64,000 nucleotides of DNA from Aulosira sp. ZfuVER01 (lineage in GTDB: Bacteria > Cyanobacteriota > Cyanobacteriia > Cyanobacteriales > Nostocaceae). A model generated the notes under the pieces. The model had not been told where the DNA came from, ran no database searches, and saw nothing but the letters and a program-made list of their open reading frames with translations. This document shows, in pieces, positions 39,371 to 55,700 of the stretch; position 1 is the first letter of the stretch, and each line of letters begins with the position of its first letter. The stretch is taken from positions 92,813-156,812 of the forward strand of contig JAVRCV020000059.1 of the NCBI GenBank assembly GCA_034530615.2, read 5' to 3'. A program made the translations under genes and the position numbers.

Positions 39371-40186
39371 TTACAACTCCTCTGCTACTGATTTCGGAAA
39401 AATTTCACCAGCTAGGTAAGCGTCAAAATTTTGTTGGAAATATAGCCAAGAGGTCATATCTTCGACATCGAGACATGATTTTGGCGCATTTTTATATAGA
39501 GGAATACGAGTATTAATTTCATCTTGTAGCCACTGAGGTAACTCACTAAGATCGTTGATTTTACTCCCAGTAGCACTATATATGAGTTGACCGGGGCGAT
39601 CGCCCATTTTCATCCAAGGAAGCCACTGACCAATTCGATCCCAACTCAGTTTAAGTTCCGAAACTGAAGTAAGTTCTGAGTTTTCTAAATCTGCGGTGGG
39701 CACTGTAAGTTTAAATAATTCTGCTGCCTGATAAATTTGTTGTGGGCTGTATTCGGCAAATTTAGGATCTGTTGCTAAGGGGTTGGGGTAAGTCGGAAAG
39801 ATATCAAAAACAAAGGTTGTACTGTCAGCTTCTACTTTCGCCGGAAATTTACCTTTGAATTCACCTTGCACAGGATTATTCGCTACGTGCATGACTGCAA
39901 CTGTCTCCCCCGTCCAAGGATTTTCCCACTTATTCAATTTCTCACCTGTCTCTGGGTTAAGGTAGTACGTCAATTCTCTCGACGTAAAATCCCACTTACC
40001 GGCTTCTGTCGCAATACACCTACTCACACTCATGCCGAATATATGAAAGAGGAGTTTTCGTTTTTCTCCAGGGATAAATGCGTAAATTTTACCTGTCCAA
40101 ATCAGGAAGGTGGATTGGCTTGAATCGAGAGAAGAACGTGTTTTCACCCAATGCTGGGCATCAAGTTCTTGAATTTGGGCAATCAT
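39371..40186 (-). CDS. DUF1838-like protein
   Basis: 'SRELTYYLNPETGE...WENPWTGETV...V.NNP', 'W.R...WLPWMKMG'. Confidence 0.7.
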   Translation of the reverse strand: MIAQIQELDAQHWVKTRSSLDSSQSTFLIWTGKIYAFIPGEKRKLLFHIFGMSVSRCIATEAGKWDFTSRELTYYLNPETGEKLNKWENPWTGETVAVMHVANNPVQGEFKGKFPAKVEADSTTFVFDIFPTYPNPLATDPKFAEYSPQQIYQAAELFKLTVPTADLENSELTSVSELKLSWDRIGQWLPWMKMGDRPGQLIYSATGSKINDLSELPQWLQDEINTRIPLYKNAPKSCLDVEDMTSWLYFQQNFDAYLAGEIFPKSVAEEL

Positions 40187-40330
40187 CTACAGCATCCTTA
40201 ATATGTGAGTCACATGGTAAGCAGATTGAGAATAAATTAGCCCTAGCTGTAAAAGGGGGCTGGTTTAACTAGTGCGATCGCTATGTTAGTCTACGTAACC
40301 ATAGTAATTCAGGGGCAAAAACTTGCATAG

Positions 40331-40690
40331 GTGATTCAATCCCATCATTTTTACGCAATTCTGCCAGCTTCAGAGGCCGTTTTCCATTGGCAGACAACAG
40401 ATTTTATCAGAGTTGTCAAAGATGCCGCCAATACAGCTAAGTTGACTGTTATTGGTGAGCTTGCTTATGCATTCCAGCCGCATGGGGTTTCCGCAGTTGT
40501 TTTACTTGCAGAATCTCATGTAGCATTACACTTTTGGCCTGAGGAAGCAAAGGTAACAATTGATATTCATATATGTGACTATCAAAAAGATAATCAAGAA
40601 AAAGCTAGGTTGTTAGCCAAAATATTAACAATACAAATCAGTGAATCAGACAGTATGGATAGCTGGAATTATTTATATATCAGCGGTTGA
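40331..40690 (+). CDS. speD: S-adenosylmethionine decarboxylase-family proenzyme
   Basis: FQPHGVS, self-cleavage motif LAESH, HFWPE, DIHIC. Confidence 0.8.
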   Translation: MIQSHHFYAILPASEAVFHWQTTDFIRVVKDAANTAKLTVIGELAYAFQPHGVSAVVLLAESHVALHFWPEEAKVTIDIHICDYQKDNQEKARLLAKILTIQISESDSMDSWNYLYISG

Positions 40691-40768
40691 TCTGTTGTCA
40701 TTGGTTAAGAGTCAATGGTCAAAAGGCAATAGTTATTAATTATTTCTCCCTCATCCTCCTTGTCCTTC

Positions 40769-41062
40769 TCATCCCGCTGCCCCCTGCCCCCTGCCTTCTG
40801 CCTCCTGCGTCCTGCCCTCTGCCTCTGGTAAAGAAATCTGGCTCAGTGATTGAGGTGATAAATCTAACTGCGGTGGTTCAGGCGATCGCTCAATAATTCC
40901 ATCATTAAAGTAAGATCCAATAATCTTGTCGTAGTTAGAAGCAACGGCTAAAAAAGCTCCACCCAAAATATAAATAGGTAATGGCAGAGTAAATTCTTGT
41001 ACCCAGTCAAACAGTTCTGCCAAGGCAAACAATACAAAAAAGCAAGCAAGCCAAACCCTCAT
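40769..41062 (-). CDS. Conserved two-TM hypothetical protein
   Basis: MRVW...LPLPIYILGGAFLAVASN; AGGAG RBS; C-terminus runs into heptamer repeats. Confidence 0.75.
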   Translation of the reverse strand: MRVWLACFFVLFALAELFDWVQEFTLPLPIYILGGAFLAVASNYDKIIGSYFNDGIIERSPEPPQLDLSPQSLSQISLPEAEGRTQEAEGRGQGAAG

Positions 41063-42375
41063 TTTCTTCTCTCCTGCGTGTAGGTAACTCTACTAATAGA
41101 GTAGACAGCTTGCATGATACTTGATTTTCTCTTGAACTTGTTGCTGCTTTGTACCCAATCAGCTTTGTTACTCTATTTGCAGGGTAACGCTGCGGAGAGT
41201 GCGATCGCCACTACCCCAAAAAATTCCTTCAAAGTCAGTTGCACAGCATAGCTCTCTTTTCTCACTCTTGCTAGGGTAAAAACTGCTACTCTTATCCAGA
41301 TAAGTTTGCCCTATAAAGTTTCGTTAATAAATTTCTATTACTTTGGATGTATTAATCCTTACTCAGTTTTATTTACATTATTTGACTTTGATTGTTATCT
41401 TCCTAAAGTTACAAAAAAGAGATAATTATTTCTTTAGTAAGAGTTAACTAGCTGGCTAATAAACAGCAACTATATAACTTAGCCATTCTAGCTCTACTTA
41501 AAGCACTGTCGTGCTGACTTATGTGGCTTAAATATGACAGTTTTATAACTGGTTTAGTTGCGATAACAGCAACTAACAACTTCTGTATTTTGATGTATAG
41601 ATATATATCTCGTTATATGCAGTATTGCTGTTAACATAGCAGCCTAATGTATACCTGAATTTGTAAATAGATTTTTATAATAAAAAGTCAAAGCTAATGA
41701 CAAATAAGTAGTAAAGTAATTTAATGGGTTTAACAAGGTATAAACCTTAGCCAAAAAATCAAATAGCCTTTGGTCTTCAAGAAGAAATATCAATCTTATT
41801 TCTTAGTTTGAAGACTACAGACCTAGCGATCAAAATCCTGTGCCCAATATTACCCTCTGATCCATCAGAGAGCTAATAGTCCGCAGGTATATGTTTAGTT
41901 TATAGGTTTGGGACGATGTATGCATTTTTATTGTGAAATTTGCATACATTAATTTCATGTCCATCTTTTTCCATATAACGTGTTGATTAAAAAAACTTAC
42001 AAGCATCATCACTGTTAATAAAAAACATTGAACATTGAAATTTAATTTACTCAAAAATAATTAAATGTCAGCAAATTAATATTTATTTTTTTAAAGTTAC
42101 ACATTCTGATAAGATGCTTTAATAACCAAGTAATTTAAAGATTTTGTAAAGAGACTAGTATTAACTAGAGTTTTGTGAAAGGCTAGATAGCCTTAAGGTG
42201 TTTTAGACATCTCATGCTTTGAGTTATCTAAAAATTTGCAAATTATAGAAAAATGGAGTTTTTAGTAACGCCATGATTCCAATTTTGAGAAATTCAAACA
42301 TCAAAAAAATAAACTTTGTTTAATTAAAAAACTGTAAATTTCAGACAAACCTTTGTTGTTGCTTGATGCCTTCCA

Positions 42376-43302
42376 ATGACATCTACCTTCTCATGGTTGA
42401 GGCATAAGAGCCTCTTTTATACTTTTTTTTCTTTGGGTGTACTTGCGTATGCAAGTATCCCAGTTCTTGCTCAAGTATCTGTTATCAGAAATACTGCTGG
42501 TGCAGGTGCAAATAATCTGCCACGACGCAGCTCAAATGAGGTAAGATTAACTGCTTCTCAAGCTGCTTTAGAAATTATCAAAACAGGTGACAGAGCCGCC
42601 GCCGAGCCAGGTGATACAGTCATTTATCGCCTTGCTATTAGAAATACTGGGCAATCGCCTGCAAGGAATCTCATAGTTACAGATAGGCTGCCTTTAGGAT
42701 TGCGATTTATTTCCAGATCGCTAAAAGGTTCGATTGGAAATACATCAGTTTCTATAACTGCTAGCTCTAGTGCCAATCGGGCAGTGACAATTTCACTCAA
42801 TCCAGCTACAGAACTACAACCAAACCAAACCTTGAATGTAGCCTATGCGGTTGAGGTAACGCCAGACGCTGTTCGCGGAACTGGCAGAAACTTGGCGCAA
42901 GCCCAAGCAGGTACATTGACAAGTAATCAATCTAGTCATCAGTTACGGATTCGACCAGGGATTGTCTCTGATTGTGGCACCATCATCGGGCGAGTATTTG
43001 TTGATAAAAACTTTGACGGCGAACAGCAACCAAACGAACCTGGAGTGCCAAATGCCGTAGTTTACATGGATGATGGCAATCGCATCGTCACAGATGCCAA
43101 TGGACTATACTCCTTGGCAAATGTCATCTCAGGTTATCGGTCGGCAACGCTGGACTTGACTAGCTTACCAGGCTATGCACTGGCACCTAACAATTACTTC
43201 ATCGAAAGAAATAGCCAGTCACGGATGGTGAAATTAGCACCGAGTAGTCTGGTACGGATCAATTTTGGTGTGACACCTGCGTTTTCAGGGGGTAAGCGAT
43301 GA
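42376..43302 (+). CDS. Secreted DUF11 + SdrD-B-like adaptor protein with an N-terminal extra hairpin
   Basis: Signal peptide ending VLA|Q; IIKTGD...PGDTVIY...N.G...TDRLP.G...RNLA; C-terminal GRVFVDKNFDGEQ..EPGV..TDANGLYS. Confidence 0.85.
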   Translation: MTSTFSWLRHKSLFYTFFSLGVLAYASIPVLAQVSVIRNTAGAGANNLPRRSSNEVRLTASQAALEIIKTGDRAAAEPGDTVIYRLAIRNTGQSPARNLIVTDRLPLGLRFISRSLKGSIGNTSVSITASSSANRAVTISLNPATELQPNQTLNVAYAVEVTPDAVRGTGRNLAQAQAGTLTSNQSSHQLRIRPGIVSDCGTIIGRVFVDKNFDGEQQPNEPGVPNAVVYMDDGNRIVTDANGLYSLANVISGYRSATLDLTSLPGYALAPNNYFIERNSQSRMVKLAPSSLVRINFGVTPAFSGGKR

Positions 43303-46300
43303 AGATGAGAAAGCTAGGAGTGATTTATAGCAAAGATTGGGCGATGAATTCCGCAACAAGATGCAGCTTCCCATTGGGAGTGAGTATTCAAAAGCAGCAA
43401 TTATCCATTTTGCGCTTGGCTGTCCAAAGCAAGGGTAAAAAAGTGATATTACTTGCTTTTTTGGCATTCATAGCCCCTTCTTTTTTTGGGATGAAGGCAA
43501 CTGCAAGCAGCAACCAAACCTTGACCACAGAGACAGATAAAAATGATGCCCAAACTGTTGCGCAACCAGCATTAGGAGAAGAGCAAAAAGAGGGCGATCG
43601 CATAGTCGCTCAAACCTTGCCATCAGTCACCACACCTGCGACAACAGATCCCAGCTCGATATTTCCCCAAGATCCAGCAATCCAATTTCAGCAAAACCCT
43701 GCCTCTCCTGTTGCTCAACCACAAACAATTCCCATACAACCAGCAACACCAACGAGTCTGCCGCAGAGTGCCAACAGTAAGGTAAAAATTGAAATTACAC
43801 CCGTAGGCGATCCGCGTGTCCAAGCTGATGGACGCTCTACCATTAAGTTCCAAGGGCAAATTACCGACGAGCAAGGCCAATTGATCCCCGATGATTTAAT
43901 GGTGACTTTAACCACCAGTGCCGGGAAATTTGTCGGAGCAGATCAAGATAAAGACCAAGGCGGGTTTCAGGTACGTGCCATCGGTGGAGAATTTACGGCG
44001 ACTCTGCAATCAGATATCAAACCCCAACAAGTCAAGATTCGGGCAGCAGTAGAGAAAATCAAAACGCGATCTGCCGTAGGCAGCAGCGCTTCGCTATCGC
44101 CCCAACTCCAAACCGGAGATTCAGCATTTCCCCAACAAACAGATACTTCACTGCTGGATAGAGTTGGCGAAGCACCGATAGAAACCTACACCCAAGTAGA
44201 ATTCACTACCTATCTGCGTCCCTCACTGGCAACAGGGATAGTCAATTTACGCATTGGTCCTGGTGGAACCGATTATTGGGGCAGTTTCCGAGACTTTCTC
44301 AACCCCGACAAAACAGGGGGAACCCAAGTTGATTTGACCGCCGCAGTCTTCGCCACAGGTAAAGTTGGAGATTGGCTATTTACAGGCGCATTTAACAGCG
44401 AACGCCCCATTAACCAAGACTGCGAAGGCAGAAACCGCTTATTTGGGGGGATTCAGTTCTGCGAGCAGCAATATCCCGTCTACGGTGATAGTTCCACATT
44501 TACATCCACCACTCCCTCTATTGATAGTTTCTATGCTCGCTTCGAGCGCAGTTCCTCAACACCGGGAGCAGATCCAGACTATGTAATGTGGGGGGACTAC
44601 AACACCCAAGAATTTGCCAGAGCTTCCCAACTGTATACAGCAACCTCCCGTCAGTTGCACGGTTTTAAAGCTAACTACAACTTCGGCCCCTTACAGATAA
44701 CTGGGTTGTACGCCAACAATATTGAAGGCTTCCAACGAGATACTATCGTCCCCAACGGTCTGAGTGGTAATTATTTCCTCTCCAAACGGCTGTTAGTTCC
44801 CGGAAGTGAAACCGTTTATCTAGAAGCAGAAGAAATTAATCGCCCTGGTACGGTACTTCAGCGTCAACAGTTGTTTCGCGGCCCCGACTACGAAATTGAC
44901 TACGATCGCGGCACACTGCTATTTCGCCGTCCCATCCTAGCTACAGAACTCAATCCTTTTGGATCTACCTTAGTCAGACGGATTGTTGTTACCTACCAAA
45001 ACGAAGGCGGACAAGATTCCAGCCTTTACGGTGGACGACTGCAATACAACATTTCCCAAGATATAGATAACAAATCTTTTATTGGTGCAAGTTACCTGCA
45101 AGAAGACCAAGGTAGCCAGGATTTTCAACTTTATGGCACAGACTTTTTACTATCTTTTGGTAATGTCGGTAAGGTTGTTGGGGAATATGCTCGTTCTAAT
45201 GGCACCCTCGTCAATGGCCAAGATTTCAACGGTTCCGCTTACCGCTTAGAAGCTCTGGGCAAACTAGGCGATAGTTTATTAGGTCAAGCCTACTACCGAG
45301 CCGTAGAACCCAACTTTAGCAACAACTCCACCTTTAGCTTTACACCAGGACAAACACGCTACGGGGCATCAGTTCTCGCCAAAATAACTGACACCACCAG
45401 CTTTAACGTTGCTTACGACTTTGAAGAAAACTATGGGACTAGTGCTACTGGGATAAATAGCTTGCTGGGCTTTTTTGACTTATTCGATCCCCAACCCCAA
45501 GCACGTCCGGGAGAGACAGTCAACAACACCCTCAAAACCTTCCGCGCCGGGATATTGCAAAGAGTCGGGCCAGCGGATGTGAGTTTAGAGTATGTCAATC
45601 GTTCTCGTGAAGATAGGATTAGCGATCGCTTTAGTGGCAATGCCGATCAGTTAGTCTCTCGTCTCAAATACCCATTAACTGAATCTTTAACCTTCCAAGG
45701 GCAAAATGAACTGAATTTAGGTGATAGCGATCCCCTCTATCCCAACCGCACAACTTTAGGACTGGACTGGAAAGCCTATCCAGGAGTCACACTGCGATTA
45801 GCTCACCAATTCTACGATGACAGCAGCTTACTTCCGGGTAACTCCCTCACCACCCTAGACACGATCCTCGATCGCAAGTTGTCAGACGATACCAGTTTGA
45901 TTGGTCGCTATTCCGTCCTCTCAGCATTTAATGGAATCCAAGGACAAGGTGCTGTCGGACTGAATCATCGCTGGGCTGTTGCACCAGGATTACGGGTGAA
46001 CGTCGGTTACGAATACGTATTCAAAAACATCTTTAATGGCACAGCAGCGGGTTCGCAATTTGGTCAATATTACGCAGTTGGTCAAACAGCTTCCTCGTTA
46101 GGCCTCTTTTCTGGTTCCGTCTATAGTGTGGGACTAGAGTACACCGATAATCCCCAATTCCAAGCCAGCACCAGGTTTGAATATCGTGATGGCGATGAAG
46201 GTAACAATCTTGTAATTTCCGCCGCCGCCGCCGGGAAGCTTTCACCAGCTTTAACAGCATTAGTTCGCTATCAACAAGCAGGTGAAGCTAACGTATTTCT

Positions 46301-47096
46301 CCCCTCTACTGTGGGTGTAATTGCCGAAGGCATCAGATTTCAAGAACTAGGCGATACCTCCAACCTAAAACTCGGTTTAGCCTACCGCGATCCCAGTAGC
46401 GATAAATTCAACGCTTTACTCAAGTACGAGTGGCGGCAAAACTATGACTCAATTCCCGAAACTCAGTTAACAGGTAGCACAGCTACAGGACATATCTTTT
46501 CCGCAGAAGCCATTTTTGCCCCTGACTGGCGCTGGGAATTTTACGGTAAATACGCCCTGCGCAATGGCGTTACCTTCTTTGATGGCGATCGCTTCGATGC
46601 TGATGTCAACTTAGCTCAACTACGAGCAACTTACAGACTCGGTTATCGTACCGATTTGGCAGTGGAAGGACGCTGGATTGGACAAACCTCCAATAGCGCC
46701 ACCAACTACGACGAATTCGGCGTAGCTGTAGAGACTGGCTATTATTTAACCCCAGATTTACGAGTGGGTTTAGGCTACAGCTTTGGCAGCGTTGATGACC
46801 GAGATTTTACTGGCTACCGTTCCGAAGGTGGTGTTTATTTGAACGTCAGCTTGAAGCTGAACGAACTTTTAGGCGGCTTTGGATTACAAAAACCCGTACC
46901 CAAGCAGCAAGAGGAATCGGAAGTACAACCGACAGCCCAGGTACAGCCAACTACGTCTAAGAGTGAGCTGATTAATTCCCTCAAACAATCACAGCAACAA
47001 GCGATTCAGCCAGATACATCAAACAGTGAAATTTCTAAACTTCTGGCAAAAATCCGCATCAAAAAAGAACCACAGATGAACACCGATAAACACTGA
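43299..47096 (+). CDS. Very large predicted outer-membrane beta-barrel protein with N-terminal Ig-like domain
   Basis: ATGA overlap with the upstream stop. Signal-like segment, P/Q linker, ADGRS Ig-like domain, then many alternating amphipathic strands ending GVYLNVSLKL. Confidence 0.8.
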   Translation: MKMRKLGVIYSKDWAMNSATRCSFPLGVSIQKQQLSILRLAVQSKGKKVILLAFLAFIAPSFFGMKATASSNQTLTTETDKNDAQTVAQPALGEEQKEGDRIVAQTLPSVTTPATTDPSSIFPQDPAIQFQQNPASPVAQPQTIPIQPATPTSLPQSANSKVKIEITPVGDPRVQADGRSTIKFQGQITDEQGQLIPDDLMVTLTTSAGKFVGADQDKDQGGFQVRAIGGEFTATLQSDIKPQQVKIRAAVEKIKTRSAVGSSASLSPQLQTGDSAFPQQTDTSLLDRVGEAPIETYTQVEFTTYLRPSLATGIVNLRIGPGGTDYWGSFRDFLNPDKTGGTQVDLTAAVFATGKVGDWLFTGAFNSERPINQDCEGRNRLFGGIQFCEQQYPVYGDSSTFTSTTPSIDSFYARFERSSSTPGADPDYVMWGDYNTQEFARASQLYTATSRQLHGFKANYNFGPLQITGLYANNIEGFQRDTIVPNGLSGNYFLSKRLLVPGSETVYLEAEEINRPGTVLQRQQLFRGPDYEIDYDRGTLLFRRPILATELNPFGSTLVRRIVVTYQNEGGQDSSLYGGRLQYNISQDIDNKSFIGASYLQEDQGSQDFQLYGTDFLLSFGNVGKVVGEYARSNGTLVNGQDFNGSAYRLEALGKLGDSLLGQAYYRAVEPNFSNNSTFSFTPGQTRYGASVLAKITDTTSFNVAYDFEENYGTSATGINSLLGFFDLFDPQPQARPGETVNNTLKTFRAGILQRVGPADVSLEYVNRSREDRISDRFSGNADQLVSRLKYPLTESLTFQGQNELNLGDSDPLYPNRTTLGLDWKAYPGVTLRLAHQFYDDSSLLPGNSLTTLDTILDRKLSDDTSLIGRYSVLSAFNGIQGQGAVGLNHRWAVAPGLRVNVGYEYVFKNIFNGTAAGSQFGQYYAVGQTASSLGLFSGSVYSVGLEYTDNPQFQASTRFEYRDGDEGNNLVISAAAAGKLSPALTALVRYQQAGEANVFLPSTVGVIAEGIRFQELGDTSNLKLGLAYRDPSSDKFNALLKYEWRQNYDSIPETQLTGSTATGHIFSAEAIFAPDWRWEFYGKYALRNGVTFFDGDRFDADVNLAQLRATYRLGYRTDLAVEGRWIGQTSNSATNYDEFGVAVETGYYLTPDLRVGLGYSFGSVDDRDFTGYRSEGGVYLNVSLKLNELLGGFGLQKPVPKQQEESEVQPTAQVQPTTSKSELINSLKQSQQQAIQPDTSNSEISKLLAKIRIKKEPQMNTDKH

Positions 47097-47167
47097 TATT
47101 TATCTGTGATTCGATATCAGCCACAAGCAATCAAGCAGCAGCCCAGGTTCAAGGTGTATAGGAGTGA

Positions 47168-49543
47168 GTGATGTCCAGTTTGAAAGTCCGTTGGCTAAAA
47201 GATTTCCAATGGTGGAAACAAAAAGATTACAAACAAAAACAGACACAATCCAGCTTATTAAAGAACAACTTCTTGTGCGTTAGCCCCCAAACTCAAAAAA
47301 ATACCATCCCACCACTAACGCAAAATCTCTCTCAAAATCTTCCTTCTTCGCGCTCTTTGCGTACTTTGCGGTTCGTTTCTCCTGTGATCTTCTACCTCTT
47401 AACTTCCGAAGCCGCACTCAGCCAAATACCTACTCCATCACCACAAGTTCCTGTTCCTACTTCTTTACGAGTAGTAGTTAACAGCAACCAAGATGGTAAC
47501 GTTAAACCTGATAACCAGTTGACTTTGCGCGAAGCCATCCAACTGGTAAATGGTACGCTATCGGTTGCCCAACTTAGCAGTGTAGAAAAAGCGCAAGTCC
47601 AACCAGCGATCGGTGGCAGTTCGCGGATTGAGTTTAGTCTACCGACAAATGCAACCACAATTCTTCTACAATCACAACTGCCAGATCTTGCCAGCCCAGG
47701 ACTAATTATAGATGGCGCAACTCAACCGGGATATAACGCTTCAACTTCAGCCACAGCCGAAATTGCCATTCCGATTCCCGTAGTAGCGATCGCACCTGCA
47801 CCCGACAAAGAAATCTTTCGTGGTTTAACAGTCGTTGCTGATGGCGTGACAATTCGCGGTTTGAGCCTTTATGGATTCAACGCCAACGCCATTAAGCAGC
47901 AATTGGGAAATATTTTAATTTACGATGGTGTGCCCAAACCGGTAACTTTAACTACACCACCAGGGGATATTGTCATTGCCCACCGTCTACCACCTCCCAA
48001 TACCACCCAGCAGCAACCACCTAACAGCAACTTTCCCTTCTATAACAAGGATGTCCCGCCAAAAAATGTTGTGATTGAGAACAACTGGTTAGGGCTAACT
48101 ACTACTGAAACCGTGCCCGAAAAAACATCAGCTTTCGGGGTTTACGTATTTAACTCCCAAGGTGCAACAATTCGCCGCAACCGAATTTACTACCATGATG
48201 GCAGCGCCATTATTACCTCAGTGCGGGGGGAAAATACCTTAATTCAAGAAAATATTATTGTCGGTAATGGGATTGCTGGAATGCCAGATGCCTTGCGGAT
48301 CGAAGGTGTGGTAAGCAAATCCCAAATTACTAGTAACTTAATTTGTGCCAATGATGGCGCAGGGGTGTATTTATTCAAACCACAGGGTGATGTGCAAATC
48401 CGTAATAACCGCATCACTTACAATGGCAGACGTTTGCGACGGGCAGCAGTTTACTTGATGGGCAGCGATCATCAGGTGACAGGTAACGAAATTTCCTATC
48501 AAACTGGGCCTGGGGTCGTTGTGACAGCTTTTCCTGAAAGTAAACGCAACATTATTCAAAATAACTCTTTTGCGGCATTAGAAGGTTTGAGTATTGACCT
48601 GAATGCCCAACGAGATTTAGACGTAAGTAACTGGCAAAGGGGAGACGGGCCAAATCCCAAACGCAATTCTGGCAATCGCCGCCTCGATACAGGTAACGGT
48701 GCTATTAACGCCCCAGAATTTAAATCGCGGGAATTTTTGCCCAGTGGTAACAGTGTCACCTTAGAAGGTAAAGCCGATCCTGGTTCTGAGGTGACAATTT
48801 ATCGCTTAGGAGATTATCAACAAGGTAAGCAGGCACTCTATGAACCTGGTTATGGGGCACTTAGCCAACCATTAGCCAGCGCACCTGTAGATGCAAAGGG
48901 AAATTTTAGCATCACAGTTGCTAATGTGCAGGCGGGAGATATAGTCAGCGCGATCGCCACAGATCCCAAATACGGCACATCCGAACCTGCGATCGCTGCT
49001 TTTATTGGCCCGAGAGGTACGACACCCAGCCTACCACCCGCAAATAAACAAAACCCCATTCCTCAATGTACTTCCAGGCCTGCGCCACCCCAACCGCCAA
49101 CGCCACCAACTGTAATACCACCCACTCAATTAAAGATTAGGGCACCACGGAATATACACTTTGCCTTAGATAAATCCTTAATTAGTCCCGCAAGTGCGAT
49201 CGTTCTCGATCGCGTGGCGGAAGTCTTGCAGCAGAATCCCCTGATTGTCATTGAAATACAAGGACACACTGACCCTCGCGCCAGCGACGATTATAACTTG
49301 GCATTGGGTAGAAGAAGGGCTTTAGCTACGAGGAATTACTTATTACGCCAAGGTATTCCCGCCGAACGGATGACGATTCGCTCATTGGGTGAAAGCCAGA
49401 GAGTCAGTGAAGGTAGTAGCCGCTTAGATTACGCACGCGATCGCCGTGCCGAAATCATCTACAAAGATGTCAGAGGAATTGACATCATCATTGAAGGCCA
49501 AGAACAAGACTTGCAATTAGAACCAGATCGAGGCAGAAGGTAG
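47168..49543 (+). CDS. Right-handed beta-helix + Ig + Pro linker + OmpA-C peptidoglycan-binding protein (start uncertain)
   Basis: 'LTLREAI', repeated I.NN.I..N, NIHFALDKS, IQGHTD.RASDDYNLALG.RRA, RRAE. Confidence 0.85.
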   Translation: MMSSLKVRWLKDFQWWKQKDYKQKQTQSSLLKNNFLCVSPQTQKNTIPPLTQNLSQNLPSSRSLRTLRFVSPVIFYLLTSEAALSQIPTPSPQVPVPTSLRVVVNSNQDGNVKPDNQLTLREAIQLVNGTLSVAQLSSVEKAQVQPAIGGSSRIEFSLPTNATTILLQSQLPDLASPGLIIDGATQPGYNASTSATAEIAIPIPVVAIAPAPDKEIFRGLTVVADGVTIRGLSLYGFNANAIKQQLGNILIYDGVPKPVTLTTPPGDIVIAHRLPPPNTTQQQPPNSNFPFYNKDVPPKNVVIENNWLGLTTTETVPEKTSAFGVYVFNSQGATIRRNRIYYHDGSAIITSVRGENTLIQENIIVGNGIAGMPDALRIEGVVSKSQITSNLICANDGAGVYLFKPQGDVQIRNNRITYNGRRLRRAAVYLMGSDHQVTGNEISYQTGPGVVVTAFPESKRNIIQNNSFAALEGLSIDLNAQRDLDVSNWQRGDGPNPKRNSGNRRLDTGNGAINAPEFKSREFLPSGNSVTLEGKADPGSEVTIYRLGDYQQGKQALYEPGYGALSQPLASAPVDAKGNFSITVANVQAGDIVSAIATDPKYGTSEPAIAAFIGPRGTTPSLPPANKQNPIPQCTSRPAPPQPPTPPTVIPPTQLKIRAPRNIHFALDKSLISPASAIVLDRVAEVLQQNPLIVIEIQGHTDPRASDDYNLALGRRRALATRNYLLRQGIPAERMTIRSLGESQRVSEGSSRLDYARDRRAEIIYKDVRGIDIIIEGQEQDLQLEPDRGRR

Positions 49544-49687
49544 GAACTGAGTGGGGAAATCCAGTTTTTCCCCTTCTAAGTAGATTTTCTCCTGCAAATT
49601 TCTGCTCTGCGCCTCAACCAAAACACAAAATCTACAAAACCTACCTTTAAAAGTCAAAAATCTACCATCTTGTTTAGGAAGCCAGAA

Positions 49688-52498
49688 ATGAAACCTTTAT
49701 TGAAAAATTTAGTTAAACCCTTAAGAGGTACATTCCTGACACTACTGTTTACTGTCCCACAGGTTCCTCTTGTAGGTAGCCTTTCCAGTAAAAAGGTGTT
49801 AGCACAAGCAAATAGCTGTCCAGGTGGTACGCAACCAGTAACTTTTGAGTGGAGTCCTACCACAAATCTGGCAGGATTTTTAGCTCAAAACCTGGTTGCT
49901 GGTGGAGTTAAAGCGACCTTTCAGTTCATCGATAGTCCTCCTCCTTTGGGAACAGTCACCGACACTGGAAATTTCGGTGCTATCGAAGATAATCAAGTCA
50001 CAAGAATTGACACAGCCTTAGAAGAATATGGCAATCTCCTCGGATCAAAGCTGCGCTGGAATATCGGTTTGGGCAAAAACCCTGCACAAGGTAATTCCAC
50101 ACTCATCATCACCTTTTCTCAACCAGTTACCTTGACAACTCCTCTCACTTTTATGGATGTTGACCGAAATGGTTCGCGAGATTTCGGGAGAATATACCAA
50201 GATAAAATTACGGTGAGAGCATTCAATGGAACTGCAAGTGTTCCTTTAACTGGTACAGCAGTCAGCCCGAGTAATCTTAGAGTTACTAATAACGGTGACA
50301 ACGTTGTTGCCGAGGCGATTAACGAAAATGCTCAATTCTTTGAATCATTTGGCAACGTTAGGATTACACCATCTGGTGCTGTTAGCCAAATCCGGGTAGT
50401 CTATGAACCAGGACAAGAATTCGGCTCCCCTGGGCAAGATGAGACTATAGGTCTAGCTAAGATCAGTATCTGTGCAGCACCAGGCTCAATAGGTGATACT
50501 GTCTTCAATGATACTAACGCTAACAATCGTCAAGATCCGGGTGAAGCTGGAATCAGCGGTGTTCAACTAAATATTAAAGATCGGAACGGTAACGTAATTG
50601 GCACGACGACTACTGATAGTAATGGTAAATACAGCTTTCCGAATTTAGTTCAGGGTCAATATACAGTTGCTGTCTCCCAACCACCTAGTGGGTTGACACC
50701 TACTCTTACCCAGCCCAATCCTATTACCCTAGGCGAGGGACAGAATTTCGATCAAGCTGATTTTGGTTTTACTCAACCGGCACAAGGTACAGGTTCGATT
50801 GGCGATTTTGTATTTAGTGATACTAATGGTAATAATATTGCAGAACCAGGAGAATCTGGAATTGCTAACCTCAACCTTGTACTCAGAGATGCCAACGGTA
50901 ACGTAATTTCCACTACGAAAACTGATGCCAATGGTATTTACAGATTTATTAATGTCCCAGCGGGTACTTACACCGTAGCAGTTACCAATCCGCCTGCTGG
51001 TTTTACTCCGACTCTACAACCTAGCGCTGTCACCCTTGCTGCCAATCAAAATATCGATACCGTGGATTTTGGTTTCCGTCCACCCACTGATGGGTCAATT
51101 GGCGATACAGTTTTCACTGATACCAACGCTAATGGTACTCAAGATAGTGGCGAACCAGGCATCGCAAATGTCACGGTTACATTAACATTGCCAAATGGAA
51201 CTCCACGAACTGCTACCACCGATAGTAATGGTAAATACAGCTTCCCTGGATTAGCACCGGGTAATTACCAAGTAAGTGCTACTCCGCCTCAAGGTAATAC
51301 TCTAACTACTGGTATTAACCCCTTCAATATTAATCTCTTACCTAGTCAAAAATTAGATAGTGCTGACTTTGGTTTTCGTCTTGGCGCATTTACTGGCGAT
51401 CGCGGTTCTATTGGCGATACAGTATTCAACGATACAAATGGCAACGGTGTCCAAGATGCAGGCGAATCGGGAGTCCCCAATGTTCCCATTACCCTGACTC
51501 TGCCTGGGAATGATGGCATATTAGGTACTCCTGACGATACCACCCAAACAACTACTACTAATGGCAACGGTATCTATAATTTTTCTAATTTACCACCAAG
51601 TAACTACAGAGTTACAATTAACCCTCCCTTCAACTTCCCCCAAATTACCACTGGTAGTTCGCAAGTAAATGTGAATCTGCAACCAGGTCAATCGCTGACT
51701 AACGTTGACTTCGGGTTGCGGCGACCGCCTGGGGGTTCTATTGGTGATACAGTGTTCAACGATACAAATAAAAACAGTAGACAAGACTCAGGCGAAACTG
51801 TAATACCCAATGTTAAACTGACTCTAAGAAATGCCAATGGTCAGATAGTTGATACTGCGACTACCAATAATAACGGCAACTATATTTTTACAGGCTTGCC
51901 AGACGGTAATTATACCGTAGATGCCACCACACCCCAGAACTTCACACCAACAACTGCAACCAGTGTCCCAGTAAATGTGGCTGCTGGCAATCCGGATATT
52001 GTTAATGTTGACTTTGGTTTTGTTGCTGGGGGTCCCAGTAATGCAGGTTTGCAGTTAGTCAAAAGAATTACAGCGATCGCTAAAATAAATGGTCAGCGCA
52101 TCCCATACAATACCTTTGTCGATGACCCCAACGACCAAAATGATAATGTCCTCAGTCCTGCGCCTGTTGGACAATATGAGATCCAAACACCAATAGAAAG
52201 CGGTGATGAAGTAGAGTACACAGTTTATTTCCGCGCCGGCCAATTACTGGATAATCTCAACTTCTGTGACTTAATACCGACGGGAACAACTTATGTACCC
52301 AACACTATTACCGTGAATGGCGGTGGTGCTGGTGCAGATCAAGGTAGATTTTTCTCTCCTCTGGCACCTTTAGAATCGGTTCCTGAAAGTAATGTTTGTG
52401 AAAATCGCAACAATCCTAACGGGACAGTAATTGTCAGGTTAGGTAATGTTCCTAATGGGCAATCTGGGTCTGTTAGCTTCCGTGTCAAAATTAATTAG
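49688..52498 (+). CDS. Surface adhesin: N-terminal head, five SdrD-B-like Ca-binding repeats, C-terminally incomplete DUF11 domain
   Basis: Five 'GSIGD.VF.DTN.N...D.GE' repeats; C-terminal LVKRIT...GDEVEYTVYF...CDLIP...SFRVKIN*; ATG at 49688. Confidence 0.85.
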   Translation: MKPLLKNLVKPLRGTFLTLLFTVPQVPLVGSLSSKKVLAQANSCPGGTQPVTFEWSPTTNLAGFLAQNLVAGGVKATFQFIDSPPPLGTVTDTGNFGAIEDNQVTRIDTALEEYGNLLGSKLRWNIGLGKNPAQGNSTLIITFSQPVTLTTPLTFMDVDRNGSRDFGRIYQDKITVRAFNGTASVPLTGTAVSPSNLRVTNNGDNVVAEAINENAQFFESFGNVRITPSGAVSQIRVVYEPGQEFGSPGQDETIGLAKISICAAPGSIGDTVFNDTNANNRQDPGEAGISGVQLNIKDRNGNVIGTTTTDSNGKYSFPNLVQGQYTVAVSQPPSGLTPTLTQPNPITLGEGQNFDQADFGFTQPAQGTGSIGDFVFSDTNGNNIAEPGESGIANLNLVLRDANGNVISTTKTDANGIYRFINVPAGTYTVAVTNPPAGFTPTLQPSAVTLAANQNIDTVDFGFRPPTDGSIGDTVFTDTNANGTQDSGEPGIANVTVTLTLPNGTPRTATTDSNGKYSFPGLAPGNYQVSATPPQGNTLTTGINPFNINLLPSQKLDSADFGFRLGAFTGDRGSIGDTVFNDTNGNGVQDAGESGVPNVPITLTLPGNDGILGTPDDTTQTTTTNGNGIYNFSNLPPSNYRVTINPPFNFPQITTGSSQVNVNLQPGQSLTNVDFGLRRPPGGSIGDTVFNDTNKNSRQDSGETVIPNVKLTLRNANGQIVDTATTNNNGNYIFTGLPDGNYTVDATTPQNFTPTTATSVPVNVAAGNPDIVNVDFGFVAGGPSNAGLQLVKRITAIAKINGQRIPYNTFVDDPNDQNDNVLSPAPVGQYEIQTPIESGDEVEYTVYFRAGQLLDNLNFCDLIPTGTTYVPNTITVNGGGAGADQGRFFSPLAPLESVPESNVCENRNNPNGTVIVRLGNVPNGQSGSVSFRVKIN

Positions 52499-52700: not shown

Positions 52701-55700
52701 TTACTTGCGCGATAATATTTTGTTGATAAATAGTCTTTCAATTTCCTGAGCAGCCAGAGGTTTAGAAAACAAGTAACCTTGCCCAAATTCACATCCGAGT
52801 TCTTGTAACCATTGCAACTGTTGTTGAGTTTCAATACCTTCTGCTACCACTGCTAATCCGAGTTGATTGCTGAGAGTAATTATAGTTTTGACAAGTTGAT
52901 AATTCCGGCTTCCCTCTTGCATTTGATTAATAAAAGAACGGTCAATTTTTAAGGTATCAGCAGGTAGTCGATGCAGATAATTGAGCGATGAATATCCAGT
53001 ACCAAAATCATCAATGCTAATTTGAATTCCTAGCGTCTTTAACTGCTCTAATACGCTCAGTGTCTCAGTAATATTATCAATGAGCATACTCTCGGTAATT
53101 TCTAAAGTTAGACACTGACCATCTAAACCAGTCCGAGCCAAAATGCGCTCTATGTCTTTAACTAAGGTCGCTTTACGAAGGTCTTGAACTGAGAGATTAA
53201 CACTCACCTTCAGGGGAAATTTATGCGCAAACTTAGTTTGCCAAATTGCAAGTTGCTGACAAGCAGTGTCAAGTATCCAGCTATCTAGAAGAACAATCAA
53301 ACCTGTTTCTTCAGCTATGGGAATAAATGCTTGAGGAGAAACAAATCCTCGAATTGGGTGTTGCCAGCGTACTAGTGCTTCAAACCCAATCAAATGATTA
53401 CTATTTATATCAAAAATAGGCTGATAATAAACGATAAACTCTTGTCTTTCTAAAGCCTTACGAAGGTCATTTTCTAAATTGAGTCTGATGAGTGCTTGAA
53501 TGTGCATCTGAGTATCAAATATTTTATAGCAGCTTTTCCCGTGAGCCTTTGCTTGATACATGGCAATATCTGAATCTCGAAGTAAATCAGAGGCTTGATG
53601 ATAATTATCTTTACCTAAAACAATACCGATACTTGTGGTAATAAATACTTCATATCCGTTGAGAATTAATGGAGCTTGAAACTCTGCTAATATCCGTTCA
53701 GCAACTCCAATGGCTTCTTCAATTCCTTGCAGATTTTCCAGCAAAATTACAAATTCATCACCACCTAAGCGAGCCGCTAAATCCATTGCCCGAATTTTGG
53801 ATTTTAGCCTTTGAGCAATGATAGTTAGTAGTTGATCTCCTGCTAAATGTCCCAAGCTGTCATTGATAATTTTGAACCGATCCATATCGAGGAACAACAC
53901 AGCGAAACGATAATTTTCAATTCGCTTGGCTCGGTTAATGGCTAAATCCAGCCGTTCGATGAGCAGGTTACGGTTGGGTAAACCGGTTAAAGCATCATGC
54001 AGTGCATTGTAAACTAGCTGTTCTTCTGCATATTTGCGATCGCTAATATCCGTGATTGTACCAACATAACCTGCAATTTTTCCTACTAAATCGTACTCAG
54101 CCACAGCCTGGCCAAATACCCAAGTTACCGTACCATTAGGCTGTTGAAATCGATACTCTAGCTGAAAAGAAAGATTTTCTTTAACAGCAGAGTACCACTC
54201 AGTTACAACTTTTTCTCGCTCATCGGGGTGGAGTCCTTTTATCCATCCAGCTTCGGCAGCTTCTTCTGAGGTGAGCCCAGTAATTTTGCACCAGCGTTCA
54301 TTGACGTAAAGACAGTTTCCTTGAGCATCGGTTCGGAAAATGCCAACTGGTGCTGCTGCTGCCAAAGAAGCATAGCGTTGTTCGCTTTGCCGTAGATGTG
54401 CTTCTGTTCGTTGTCTTTCTGTTAGTTCTGTTTGCAACTGCTGGTAAGCAGTTGCCTGCTGGATGGCGATCGCCAACTGAGTTGAAAGCTGTTGTATGAG
54501 AGTGATTTCTTCAGCTTGCCATTGTCGAGGAGCTTGGCTCTCAACAACGTTCAGCAGTCCCCAAAGGTTATCGCCTTCGATAATGGGCATCAAAATTTTT
54601 GCCCGAGTTTGTAATGATTCCAGTAGCTGGCGGTGGCAATCACTCATCTGTGTCGTGTAGATATCACAAACGACGCGAGTCCGTTCTTTGCGATCGCTTG
54701 TTACCCAATCAGGTGCATAACAAGAATCGTAAATTTGTTTACCTAGGTGAGAAGAGTAACCATCAGCGACAGATTCTGCAACCACAACTACACTCCAGTC
54801 TGCTTGGAACTGCCAGATGGCAGCGCGATCGCAGCCTAAAAGCGATCGCACTTCTTGAACTGTGGTTTCGAGAATATTCTGCAAATTCAACGAAGATCGA
54901 ATTTGAGTAGCAATAGTTGCAATTAATTTTTCCCGTTCTGCTTTTGCCTTAAGTATGGTGGTACGCTCAAGAACTTGTTGCTCTAATTCGGCGTTGCGAT
55001 TTTGCAACAATTCTAGTTTTTCTGCTTCTAACCGAGACACCCGATGTTCCAATACTTCGACTAAATAAGTTAACTCCAAAGGATTGAGTACTTTGAGAAT
55101 ACTAGTCTGGGTAACAATCCCTAATAACTCTCCTTGAGTACCAACTACCACTATCCGCTTCACTAAGTATTGCTGCATGATTTGTTGAACAATCCACAGA
55201 GATTCGTGAGGACTGACAGAAAAAACTGGGGTACTCATCACATCCTGGGCTTGCAGGTGTTCAAAATTTAGTTCTAATGCATGAAATTGCACAATATCTC
55301 GCTCTGTGACAATGCCAATTGGTATTTGTAGAAATTGCTCTGGTATTTCCTGAAATTGTTCTTCTACAAGCACCACCGAACTTACCTGATGTTCTGCCAT
55401 CAAGTGAGTAATCCCTAGCATCGAAATATTGGGAGCAGCATAAACCACTTGCGAAGACATCACGTCTTTCACCAAGCGTAGTTGCAGCAAATCGATTGGA
55501 CGTGACAATTGTCGCAAGCTTTCATGGGTCAGTAGTCCCACGATTTGGTTTTGCTCATTGAGCAACGGTAAGTGGCGAATGTGATACTGCTGAAGGAGAT
55601 TGACAGCAAAGAAGAGATTGGTAAATGCAGATTGCTGCAAAGTAATGACTGGATGTGTCATCACCTCAGAAATTGTTAGATTATCTAGCGATCGCTTCTG

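Follow-up and report, generated by a model that had tools for sequence, protein, structure and literature searches.

The adhesin at the end of a four-gene locus in this DNA terminates in a truncated, CLIPPER-like domain, and the closing hairpin that it lacks is carried, directly after the signal peptide, by an adaptor encoded at the start of the same locus. The division of the domain between two proteins is conserved, its two halves co-occur across genomes, and models of the complex place an interface on these parts. Completion of the adhesin domain in trans is well supported by the models and by sequence comparisons, and we consider it probable that the best explanation overall (a split domain, completed in trans, that anchors the adhesin and is perhaps locked covalently) is correct. 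A literature search returned no description of such a split-domain anchoring system.

Gene Order at the Locus

Within the window (the whole stretch of 64,000 nucleotides that was analyzed), four genes on the same (+) strand span 42376..52498 in the list of open reading frames (ORFs) and encode, in order, the adaptor, a barrel protein, an OmpA-type protein and the adhesin. Together they probably constitute a cell-envelope adhesin module with the following features.

42376..43302, +, adaptor gene, 308 aa (ORF): signal peptide, donor hairpin, complete CLIPPER/DUF11 domain and C-terminal SdrD_B-like domain
42376..42471, +, adaptor residues 1-32, ...PVLA|Q, predicted to be a Sec signal peptide (sequence features)
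42484..42549, +, donor beta-hairpin of the adaptor, residues 37-58, I-R-N-T-A...S-N-E-V-R-L, N39 codon at 42490-42492
42568..42951, +, adaptor residues 65-192, a complete CLIPPER/DUF11 domain of its own with K69/D103/N172 (Pfam, 9IFR alignment)
42961..43284, +, C-terminal SdrD_B-like domain of the adaptor, residues 196-303, presumed barrel-docking part (alignment A2, G128 fusion)
43299..47096, +, putative outer-membrane beta-barrel protein, 1265 aa (ORF; Atlas cluster labels)
47168..49543, +, 791-aa protein with right-handed beta-helix, Ig-like domain and C-terminal OmpA-type peptidoglycan-binding domain (Pfam)
49688..52498, +, adhesin gene, 936 aa from ATG: signal peptide, N-terminal region of ~270 aa, five SdrD_B repeats and C-terminal acceptor domain
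52010..52495, +, C-terminal acceptor domain of the adhesin, CLIPPER-like, strands 1-7 only (AF2, conservation, complex model)
52061-52063, 52268-52270 and 52463-52495, +, sites of the acceptor domain: Lys codon, Asp codon and last strand SGSVSFRVKIN

The barrel start overlaps the adaptor stop by 4 bases. An alternative, upstream adhesin start (TTG at 49670) would give 942 aa; the stored homologue P0001 has 936 aa. At 21 loci (this one and 20 others, selected for having both genes on the same contig), the barrel directly follows the adaptor in every case and an acceptor-domain protein is always present, whereas a homologue of the OmpA-type protein occurs at 12 and is missing from 9.

The 1265-aa barrel has no Pfam match above cut-off, no NCBIfam match and no sequence match in the PDB, and the Atlas clusters closest to it bear the labels “putative TonB-dependent receptor” and “outer membrane protein.” We infer that it serves as an anchor or usher-like pore, and likewise infer its outer-membrane location, the orientation of the complex and the route of the adhesin across the membrane. 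The OmpA-type protein matches Pfam OmpA (62.1 bits) and Beta_helix (51.7 bits). Neither an usher (PF00577) nor a PapD-like chaperone (PF00345) was found in the Pfam scan of the four proteins, and the Pfam and NCBIfam scans of the same four revealed no sortase.

The Adaptor and Its Orphan Hairpin

The signal peptide of the adaptor is predicted from its sequence, which shows a basic n-region followed by a hydrophobic stretch and V-L-A, with cleavage presumed after ...PVLA; AF2 models a helix at residues 4-27. An earlier note on this DNA had described a full DUF11 domain in the adaptor, and PF01345 indeed matches residues 65-165 (49.3 bits against a cut-off of 24.6), as does TIGR01451 (56.5 bits against a cut-off of 24). 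K69, D103 and N172, which the note had placed in this domain, proved correct in residue and coordinate when checked against the sequence, and the closing hairpin that it described lies at residues 170-187. The domain aligns to the solved CLIPPER domain 9IFR (9ifr_A, E 6e-4) with matching positions for Lys in strand 1, Asp in strand 3 and Asn in the penultimate strand; each of the three is conserved in 120 of 120 adaptor homologues (1933 homologues were found at E<=1e-3). Modeled alone in AF2, the domain has nine strands and high pLDDT. Near the C-terminus, an SdrD_B match (26.4 bits, residues 206-256) falls under its Pfam cut-off, and AF2 models this region poorly (pLDDT <50); in alignment A2, the majority of its columns do not vary. 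It presumably docks on the barrel, with which it is fused into one polypeptide in genome G128.

Directly after the signal peptide lies the orphan hairpin that had been claimed there (IRNTAG...NEVRL, residues 37-58, N39 at 42490). That it is a second copy of the closing hairpin is borne out by profile-profile comparison (E 1.9e-4, 43% identity over 21 columns), and it corresponds to strands 8-9 in CLIPPER domains. Among adaptor homologues, N39 is conserved in 119 of 120 and S53/N54 in 120 of 120; N54 is not kept in class-B loci, which favors N39 as the reactive Asn. The note had named packing of the hairpin on the adaptor's own DUF11 domain as an observation that would speak against its proposal. 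In the AF2 model of the adaptor alone, the hairpin is disordered: residues 28-61 have pLDDT <50 and no secondary structure.

It could be argued that the hairpin is the relic of a decayed upstream domain, or that it completes some other Ig-like domain, since the barrel (Big_1, 17.1 bits) and the OmpA-type protein (Big_6, 26.8 bits) both have weak Ig-like matches below the Pfam cut-off and the complex model covered the adhesin domain as the sole candidate partner. However, a relic would not stay invariant as this hairpin has, nor keep its place right behind the signal peptide, as the hairpin does in 20 of 20 intact adaptors, which represent two classes, and also in two deep-branching genomes. 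The absence of the OmpA-type protein from nine loci that all have an acceptor-domain protein further argues against another partner, and we consider both variants very improbable.

The Truncated C-Terminal Domain of the Adhesin

The adhesin retains the Lys (LVKRIT, 52061) and the Asp (CDLIP, 52268) where the earlier note had located them. As also noted, it ends in ...SFRVKIN, with the stop codon at 52496-52498, and lacks the Asn hairpin according to a hairpin HMM. With this HMM, no copy emerged from the adhesin, the barrel or the OmpA-type protein, where the best i-E was 1.4, or from the 120 acceptor-bearing proteins, where it was 0.82. The proposed equivalence of SFRVKIN to YAVEVT of the adaptor holds in two comparisons. 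Both segments fall near position 94 of the 132-position PF25549 profile, although the adhesin match is weak (E 0.022), and in the respective AF2 models each is main strand number seven (residues 152-161 in each). Past this strand the adaptor domain adds strands at 171-178 and 186-189; the adhesin protein ends.

Modeled alone in AF2, the acceptor domain (the last ~150 aa of the adhesin) reaches a pLDDT of 88.0 and a pTM of 0.83 with strands 1-7, compared to nine strands in the adaptor domain and 9IFR. Self-sufficient folding of this domain had been named as a finding that would count against the split; the domain does fold confidently by itself, but its model is without strands 8-9.

The position of the domain is nearly constant. 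It forms the protein C-terminus in 118 of the 120 homologues among those listed, behind varied passengers (SdrD_B, DUF11, PF18483); SdrD_B itself scores 366.7 bits in 5 stretches of the adhesin. In a profile search that covered 1.84 billion representatives, it was C-terminal in all 70 full-length matches among the best 150 listed. Nine internal partial matches reach the end of the profile, and seven of these, judged by eye, continue into x-N-x-A within 11-15 residues. The motif that follows the strand-7 equivalent in these unsplit relatives is an [IV]-x-N-x-A hairpin, and one protein (P0303) carries both an internal copy with the hairpin and a truncated terminal copy.

Assignment of the acceptor domain to the CLIPPER/DUF11 family is weak. 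The domain alone has no Pfam family above cut-off, the weak PF25549 match included, and no PF01345 match; TIGR01451 on the whole adhesin scores 24.5 bits against a cut-off of 24, and hhalign aligns the acceptor and adaptor families with E 2.2e-5 over only 49 columns at 76% probability. Foldseek returned no PDB match for the model at E<=0.001. The best VIA-align matches are pilin isopeptide domains (CppA, Z 8.0; BcpA, 7.2; RrgB, 6.9), and 9IFR follows with Z 6.5 (rmsd 3.0 over 90 residues), where according to the tool Z values of 6-8 (below 8) may reflect only a common arrangement.

A Predicted Complex of Adaptor and Adhesin

Models of the adaptor with the acceptor domain gave ipSAE values of 0.86, 0.86 and 0.87 in three runs, whereas the best of three unrelated-protein controls scored 0.00. 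In the tool's calibration, 116 of 157 solved complexes attained the ipSAE mark, as did 2 of 215 mismatched pairs; the calibration holds only roughly here because the complex was modeled with our own alignments. As ipSAE is the model's own confidence, a pass may mirror likeness to intact single-chain CLIPPER domains, or memory of solved structures, instead of real binding. The partner pLDDT is 92, and the runs share at least 96% of contacts. The interface comprises residues 34, 37-48, 50-63, 94-97 and 178-182 of the adaptor and residues 13-20, 55-65, 68-74, 78-94, 128-131 and 160-162 of the acceptor domain. The contact is thus modeled on exactly the parts between which the earlier note had proposed it, the adaptor hairpin and the adhesin C-terminus, and is well separated from the controls.

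Adaptor residues 37-63 lie in the model alongside the acceptor strands that carry the Lys and the Asp, with contacts of the Lys (domain residue 18) to A41 and S53-V56 and of the Asp (domain residue 87) to A41. The pair of Lys and N39 is absent from the 25 lowest-error contacts listed for the complex model; from the strand register, we deduce that Lys, Asp and N39 would converge.

In the mechanism that we propose, Sec would export both the adhesin and the adaptor. Because the acceptor stops after strand 7, its missing two-strand closing hairpin, the carrier of the Asn in intact domains, would be supplied by the adaptor, entering between acceptor strand 1 (Lys) and strand 3 (Asp) and completing the fold by donor-hairpin complementation. 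In this way the adhesin would be tethered, with no sortase involved, to the complex of adaptor and barrel. The Lys at 52061, the Asp at 52268 and Asn39 of the adaptor (42490) may then react autocatalytically, linking the two chains through a Lys-Asn isopeptide bond of the kind that intact CLIPPER domains contain. Binding of hairpin and acceptor in the cell appears quite likely.

Conservation and Co-occurrence

Among the aligned homologues of the acceptor domain, the Lys is conserved in 118 of 118 and the Asp in 118 of 118, and both residues persist, as does the Asn of the hairpin, in the divergent class-B loci as well as in two deep-branching genomes. In those two genomes, the acceptor-bearing protein also begins with a donor hairpin.

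The two features travel together, as the earlier note had expected: the acceptor domain was found in 42 of 401 genomes of the phylum and the adaptor in all 42, although genomes that share the pair are kin and not independent samples. Eight genomes have a close adaptor without a single-sequence acceptor match. In seven of them the acceptor domain is detected with a profile and shares contig and strand with the adaptor. No acceptor domain occurs in the eighth (G128), whose adaptor, fused to the barrel, is without the hairpin; the sole close adaptor without a partner is thus also the one in which the hairpin is missing.

The central claim of the note, that the adaptor hairpin completes the adhesin domain in trans, stands on the complex model, the disorder of the hairpin in the adaptor modeled alone and the lack of a cis copy in the adhesin. 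It is further supported by the cis I-x-N-x-A continuation of unsplit relatives, the near-perfect co-occurrence and synteny, and the joint absence of both features in G128.

A different reading takes the C-terminal domain for a sorting or secretion signal that suffices by itself and is read by the barrel, similar to those of the T9SS, and the hairpin contact for a modeling artifact due to likeness to intact CLIPPER domains. The domain is modular, always C-terminal and attached to varied passengers, AF2 folds it alone, and memory of solved structures can yield a passing complex score. This reading leaves unexplained an invariant orphan hairpin that is disordered alone, the constant stop at strand 7 while internal relatives run on into the hairpin, and the hairpin-less close adaptor in the one genome without an acceptor domain; the null scores of the unrelated-protein controls also speak against it. 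TIGR04183 (T9SS sorting domain) does not match the adhesin C-terminus, and its sole stretch (388-440, 22.5 bits against a cut-off of 23) lies within the SdrD_B repeats. The C-terminus (...GSVSFRVKIN) has no LPXTG-type sorting signal with hydrophobic tail and no NCBIfam sortase-signal match. We regard a sorting signal as improbable and retain completion in trans.

Probable Completion in Trans, Covalent or Non-covalent

Completion in trans could also be purely non-covalent, as in the donor-strand complementation of chaperone-usher pili, with the Lys, Asp and Asn serving packing or hydrogen bonding. The evidence for complementation (the model, hairpin disorder, lack of a cis copy, unsplit relatives) fits this equally well, and some DUF11 domains are described, in the excerpted text of PMC12617251, as being without the bond. 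On the other hand, the triad is invariant over both proteins (118/118, 118/118 and 119/120) and over deep divergence, whereas the isopeptide positions are, according to the same excerpts, not universally conserved across DUF11 as a whole (PMC12617251). Among the fold neighbors of the acceptor domain is the Jo/In complex from RrgA (PDB 5MKC), in which the same fold class, artificially split, presumably reacts covalently. We consider a purely non-covalent completion rather unlikely.

A covalent bond between the Lys and Asn39 fits both the invariance of the split triad and the modeled contacts, and overall we place it slightly short of an even chance. The strongest form of the proposal, a natural Tag/Catcher in which a CLIPPER domain split over two polypeptides re-forms outside the cytoplasm and self-ligates through a Lys-Asn isopeptide bond, is put forward tentatively. 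If true, it would represent a fibre-assembly pathway without sortase or chaperone, anchored on a dedicated outer-membrane barrel. The hairpin-bearing acceptor proteins of the deep-branching genomes could then polymerise head to tail into covalent pili, and the Nostocales version would be a two-subunit remnant consisting of tip adhesin and anchor.

Comparison With Known Systems

In chaperone-usher pili, the tip adhesin FimH is completed by the N-terminal extension of the adaptor subunit FimG. Donor-strand complementation and exchange in such pili are described in general terms in the excerpted text of PMC9715654. Judging from models and comparative anatomy, the present system is alike in that the incomplete C-terminal Ig-like domain of an adhesin would be filled by an extension at the N-terminus of the following subunit, the operon also encodes a large barrel that is putatively in the outer membrane, and Sec would export all parts. 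It differs in that the donor is a two-strand hairpin and not a single strand, the fold is probably CLIPPER (CnaA-like), the barrel has no usher family above cut-off and the Pfam scan shows no PapD-like chaperone among the four proteins, the fibre in the window is only two subunits long, and a Lys/Asp/Asn triad appears poised for a covalent lock.

The sortase-assembled pilins RrgB, SpaA, BcpA and SpaD are fold neighbors of the acceptor domain, and Gram-positive pili of this kind are surface fibres of covalently joined CnaA/CnaB-type isopeptide domains, which the present fibre may resemble. Unlike them, the system described here has no LPXTG and no operon sortase, and the join would be autocatalytic, inside a reconstituted domain.

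Isopeptag/pilin-C is an engineered split isopeptide pair. SpyTag/SpyCatcher is another, according to excerpts of PMC6539128. In these pairs and in Jo/In, as proposed here, a short strand or hairpin with one reactive residue docks and completes both fold and triad. Gram-positive proteins were the laboratory starting material for the engineered pairs, whereas the present split is natural, conserved, between two genes of one diderm operon, and would serve anchoring.

The archaeal thread filament of Saci_0406 combines inter-subunit donor-strand complementation with an apparent intermolecular isopeptide bond and, in the excerpted account, no known sortase (PMC9715654), which is similar to what we propose. 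According to the same excerpts, its bond instead links the alpha-amino group at the N-terminus (Asp24) with Asn57 in subunit n+2, and the thread is a homopolymer of unrelated fold and family (PMC9715654). A further relative, of the same fold family, is the CLIPPER (DUF11, PF01345) domain 9IFR, whose crystal structure, as excerpted, has nine strands in sheets of four and five with Lys-715, Asp-748 and Asn-806 (PMC12617251). The complete domain of the adaptor aligns with its triad positions; in 9IFR the triad lies in one chain and the bond is intramolecular, whereas in the present system the adhesin provides the Lys and Asp and the adaptor the Asn.

The Operon and Its Proteins

The operon comprises four co-directional genes on the + strand of the window, encoding an adaptor, a 1265-aa protein, a 791-aa protein and an adhesin:

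42376-43302, +: adaptor, 308 aa
43299-47096, +: 1265-aa putative barrel protein, its start overlapping the adaptor stop by 4 bases
47168-49543, +: 791-aa protein with a right-handed beta-helix and a C-terminal OmpA domain (Pfam/NCBIfam)
49688 (ATG) to 52498 (stop), +: adhesin with five SdrD_B repeats (Pfam)

In the adaptor, Pfam places DUF11 at residues 65-165 (49.3 bits), and the C-terminal part is SdrD_B-like at a sub-threshold score. Residues 842-884 of the adhesin give a marginal DUF11-repeat match (NCBIfam TIGR01451, 24.5 bits; cut-off 24). For the 1265-aa protein, neither Pfam nor NCBIfam gives a family above cut-off, PDB sequences show no match, and the Atlas labels are automatic ones only; we infer that it forms the barrel. 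The 8.0 Mb genome encodes a single copy of the adhesin C-terminal domain (hereafter the acceptor domain), and DUF11 occurs in only one other protein.

A Putative Donor Hairpin in the Adaptor

The solved CLIPPER domain 9IFR can be aligned with the adaptor's own domain (E 6e-4). That structure, a nine-strand sandwich, has Lys-715 in the first strand bonded to Asn-806 in the penultimate strand, with Asp-748 nearby (PMC12617251). Based on this alignment, K69, D103 and N172 constitute the adaptor triad, and all three are conserved in 120 of 120 adaptor homologues among those listed. The earlier note had read the motifs and residue numbers correctly throughout, including N39 (position 42490), the adaptor triad, the adhesin Lys (LVKRIT, 52061) and Asp (CDLIP, 52268), and the adhesin C-terminus SFRVKIN. 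Its proposal that an orphan hairpin behind the signal peptide copies the closing hairpin of the adaptor domain is borne out by a profile-profile comparison (E 1.9e-4, 43% identity over 21 columns).

Among the operon proteins, a hairpin HMM matches only adaptor residues 35-60 (E 4e-16), with nothing in the adhesin, the barrel or the OmpA protein, and nothing in the 120 listed acceptor-bearing proteins (best i-E 0.82). The hairpin directly follows the signal peptide, which puts Asn39 about seven residues into the predicted mature protein; in cis domains, 10-15 residues separate strand 7 from the Asn that follows it. The split therefore corresponds to the strand 7-8 loop. N39 is kept in 119 of 120 listed adaptors, the exception being a gap at that alignment column, and S53 and N54 are kept in all 120. 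N54 was considered as the reactive Asn and is disfavored, as class-B hairpins (from the second operon type described below) do not conserve it. When the adaptor was modeled alone, residues 28-61 had pLDDT below 50 and no secondary structure, alongside a confident DUF11 domain. This suggests that the hairpin is not packed on the DUF11 domain of its own protein, whose strands 8 and 9 are already in place, an outcome in line with the split-domain idea.

A Truncated, Putative Acceptor Domain in the Adhesin

The AF2 model of the acceptor domain (30-sequence alignment; pLDDT 88.0, pTM 0.83) has strands that match strands 1-7 of the adaptor domain one for one, with the last strand at 152-161 in both models. 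The adaptor model goes on with strands 171-178 and 186-189, whereas the adhesin stops, so that, as the earlier note had claimed, the Asn hairpin is missing. As modeled, the adhesin C-terminal domain is thus a truncated domain of the adaptor-domain kind. Profile comparison of the two families aligns their middle parts (E 2.2e-5, 49 columns). A weak PF25549 match in the acceptor domain ends at profile position 94 of 132, and the adaptor match reaches position 103 at residue 170, just before N172. Foldseek against PDB returned nothing at E≤0.001 for the acceptor model, the top rows being pilins (SpaD, 3.5e-3) and unrelated beta-sandwiches; the VIA-align wide comparison gave Z≤8.0, too weak to prove the family or to name the missing strands.

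A search for acceptor homologues yielded 374 at E≤1e-3, 120 of them listed. In 118 of these 120, the domain ends 0-1 residue from the C-terminus (3 and 9 residues in the other two), behind passengers that vary and include SdrD_B, DUF11 repeats and PF18483. Both Lys and Asp are kept in 118 of 118 acceptor domains among the listed homologues. A profile search of 1.84 billion representatives, of which the best 150 matches were considered, gave 70 full-length matches, all ending at the C-terminus; the remainder are giant DUF11-repeat proteins matching the profile middle only. Nine internal partial matches reach the profile end, and in seven of these a strand of ...RFRVxI[N/D] type is followed 11-15 residues on by x-N-x-A, as judged by eye. 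For example, P0303 has one such internal copy and a truncated terminal copy of its own. These internal copies therefore suggest that the Asn hairpin is the natural continuation of the domain and is missing from the terminal ones. Judging from these alignments, the truncation is no peculiarity of the window's gene.

The terminal residue of the acceptor domain is D in 59, N in 57, E in one and Q in one. This terminal Asn/Asp was considered as the isopeptide partner and rejected, because class-B domains end in Lys (one in Pro) and the hairpin contains no Lys.

Distribution and Two Operon Classes

By single-sequence search, 42 of 401 genomes of the phylum contain the acceptor domain and 54 contain the adaptor. 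All 42 acceptor genomes also hold the adaptor, a co-occurrence of the kind that the earlier note had proposed to look for; related genomes are not independent samples, and in the 347 adaptor-negative genomes the query for the acceptor was a single sequence only. Twelve genomes had only the adaptor by this search, eight with close and four with distant adaptors. Using the alignment profile A3, which includes divergent acceptors, we recovered the domain in seven of the eight close-adaptor genomes, always on the contig and strand of the adaptor. Profile A3 found no acceptor domain in G128 (99% complete), where a single ORF of 1301 aa (L081:5657-9562) joins adaptor and barrel and the adaptor part lacks the donor hairpin; this is one case with both hairpin and acceptor domain missing. 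Two of the four distant genomes were examined (G016 and G052). Both encode a protein that ends in ...TFRV[RK][VI][ND], keeps Lys and Asp, and adjoins a long adaptor-like protein with the mature N-terminus x-N-T-A...S-N-T-V. Overall, about 50 of the 401 sampled genomes carry the system, which is common in filamentous cyanobacteria.

We compared 21 loci, namely the window and 20 picked because both genes shared a contig, and in all 21 the adaptor gene comes first, followed by the barrel gene and by between one and three genes for acceptor-domain proteins. Twelve of the 21 also have the OmpA/beta-helix gene, and the hairpin directly follows the signal peptide in 20 of 20 intact adaptors. Two classes were distinguished, each paired with its own acceptor type: class A resembles the window, and class B has a domain of about 190 residues between the hairpin and the DUF11 domain, a stretch with no Pfam family in the L075 adaptor.

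L075-L080 (e.g., L075:1396-2958): class-B adaptors, 482-551 aa, with the ~190-residue conserved insert DPLGRI.GC.G...YNFLLD...

At some loci (L063:8997-12518 and L066:8426-16918), one adaptor and barrel are followed by a tandem row of two or three distinct acceptor-domain proteins, which suggests interchangeable adhesins with a common anchor.

Predicted Complex

We modeled the acceptor domain with adaptor residues 34-195, using a separate alignment for each. The ipSAE values were 0.86, 0.86 and 0.87, against 0.00 for the best of three controls. This score expresses how confident the model is in itself, and a high value may also come from resemblance to intact CLIPPER domains; its calibration, in which 116 of 157 solved complexes and 2 of 215 mismatched pairs attained the mark, holds only roughly for custom-made alignments. 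Partner pLDDT was 92, and contacts agreed at ≥96% between runs. The adaptor contributes hairpin residues 34, 37-48 and 50-63 and two loops of its own domain to the interface; the acceptor contributes strands 1 and 2-3 together with residues 160-162 at its C-terminal end. Within the hairpin, residues 41-46 are paired with the Asp-carrying strand of the acceptor (residues 80-87), and residues 53-56 are next to the acceptor Lys. The register is antiparallel (41 with 87, 43 with 85), which would place N39 two residues from A41, on the same face and next to the Asp. The earlier note had expected the hairpin to dock on the acceptor with Lys, Asp and N39 converging. The model predicts this docking, with Lys and Asp both touching A41; the Lys-N39 pair is outside the 25 pairs listed, and convergence of the triad, deduced from the strand register, fits the model.

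Proposed Mechanism and Relation to Known Systems

In the mechanism we propose, adaptor and adhesin would both leave via Sec, and the adaptor's C-terminal domain would hold it on the barrel. We infer this docking from sequence features, namely the near-invariance of that domain, the 4-base overlap, the constant adjacency and the G128 fusion. The free N-terminal hairpin would enter the acceptor domain as strands 8 and 9, after which an amide bond would probably arise within the Lys-Asp-Asn triad, as it does in 9IFR. The barrel would serve as a pore for the adhesin or as an anchor only. Completion of the acceptor domain in trans has strong computational support, and we regard it as likely; the covalent isopeptide step is, overall, proposed more tentatively, at somewhat below even chances.

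To our knowledge, accounts of autocatalytic isopeptide domains present them as intramolecular staples, sortase pili and phage capsids excepted. The full-text literature covered, which excludes subscription journals, contains neither a natural split isopeptide or CLIPPER domain nor this operon, in agreement with the novelty claimed by the earlier note. Chaperone-usher tips are organized in a similar way: the C-terminal Ig domain of the adhesin is incomplete, the adaptor subunit is extended at its N-terminus, and a barrel completes the set. The proposed system departs from this in its CLIPPER fold, in the use of a two-strand hairpin as donor and in the possibility of a covalent lock; in addition, Pfam detected neither an usher nor a PapD-like family among the four operon proteins. 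Close precedents include sortase pili, the engineered split pairs SpyTag/SpyCatcher and Jo/In, and CLIPPER itself, whose bond is intramolecular; the 2025 global survey that gave its first structure treats isopeptide domains as intramolecular only (PMC12617251). In archaeal threads, another such precedent, donor-strand complementation occurs together with an isopeptide bond of an unusual type (PMC9715654). Besides an adhesion protein and a 'cell surface protein', the Microcystis cyanobacterial tubular (CT) pilus cluster encodes a porin, which its authors liken to an usher; its pilin, of ~12 kDa, has helices, and the cluster includes glycosyl- and methyltransferases that are missing here (PMC12397347). 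Kinship between the two, compared by description only, is neither shown nor excluded.

If the proposal is true, a diderm would attach large fibrillar adhesins to its envelope by a route that involves no sortase, T9SS, T1SS retention module or autotransporter barrel, and that joins donor-strand complementation and isopeptide cross-linking, which have so far been apart in bacteria. It would also supply new evolved tag/catcher pairs, probably orthogonal because there are at least two divergent classes. Given the many different passengers on the acceptor domain, the system probably governs a good part of surface adhesion in filamentous cyanobacteria.

Additional Genomic Observations

A small secreted protein of 154-188 aa is encoded upstream of the adaptor in class-B operons and at one deep-branching locus; the window's own operon has no such gene.

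L076:566-1129: small-protein gene
L077:11097-11660, -: small-protein gene
L078:13147-13707, -: small-protein gene
L080:9346-9912, -: small-protein gene
L082:205-669: small-protein gene

The core of this small protein resembles DUF11 weakly (PF01345, E 0.013), and its C-terminus is a motif like strand 7 (...TYQTQVR, ...TYKVKVK); the protein may compete for the hairpin or act as a second subunit that carries an acceptor only, such as a cap or tip. In two deep-branching genomes (L082:716-3868 and L083:601-3576), the acceptor protein starts with a donor-type hairpin, I-G-N-Q-A-T...S-S-N, after the signal peptide. With donor hairpin and acceptor domain in one protein, head-to-tail polymerization could in principle occur.

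In the window, the 1.3 kb upstream of the adaptor (41063-42375) has no ORF of at least 80 aa and may be a large regulatory region; the GC fraction is 0.376 in the 2-kb bin 40001-42000, where this stretch lies. Directly downstream of the adhesin, a convergent gene (52701-55964, -) encodes a 1087-aa protein whose translation has GGDEF and EAL motifs after N-terminal regions, and it is therefore likely a c-di-GMP turnover protein; a regulatory link to the adhesin operon is a guess.

In G268, a second adaptor copy (L074:10796-11533, -) has an in-frame TGA that cuts off the hairpin-bearing N-terminal part from the ORF and could be a pseudogene or a sequencing error. The barrel and acceptor-domain genes beside this broken copy look intact.
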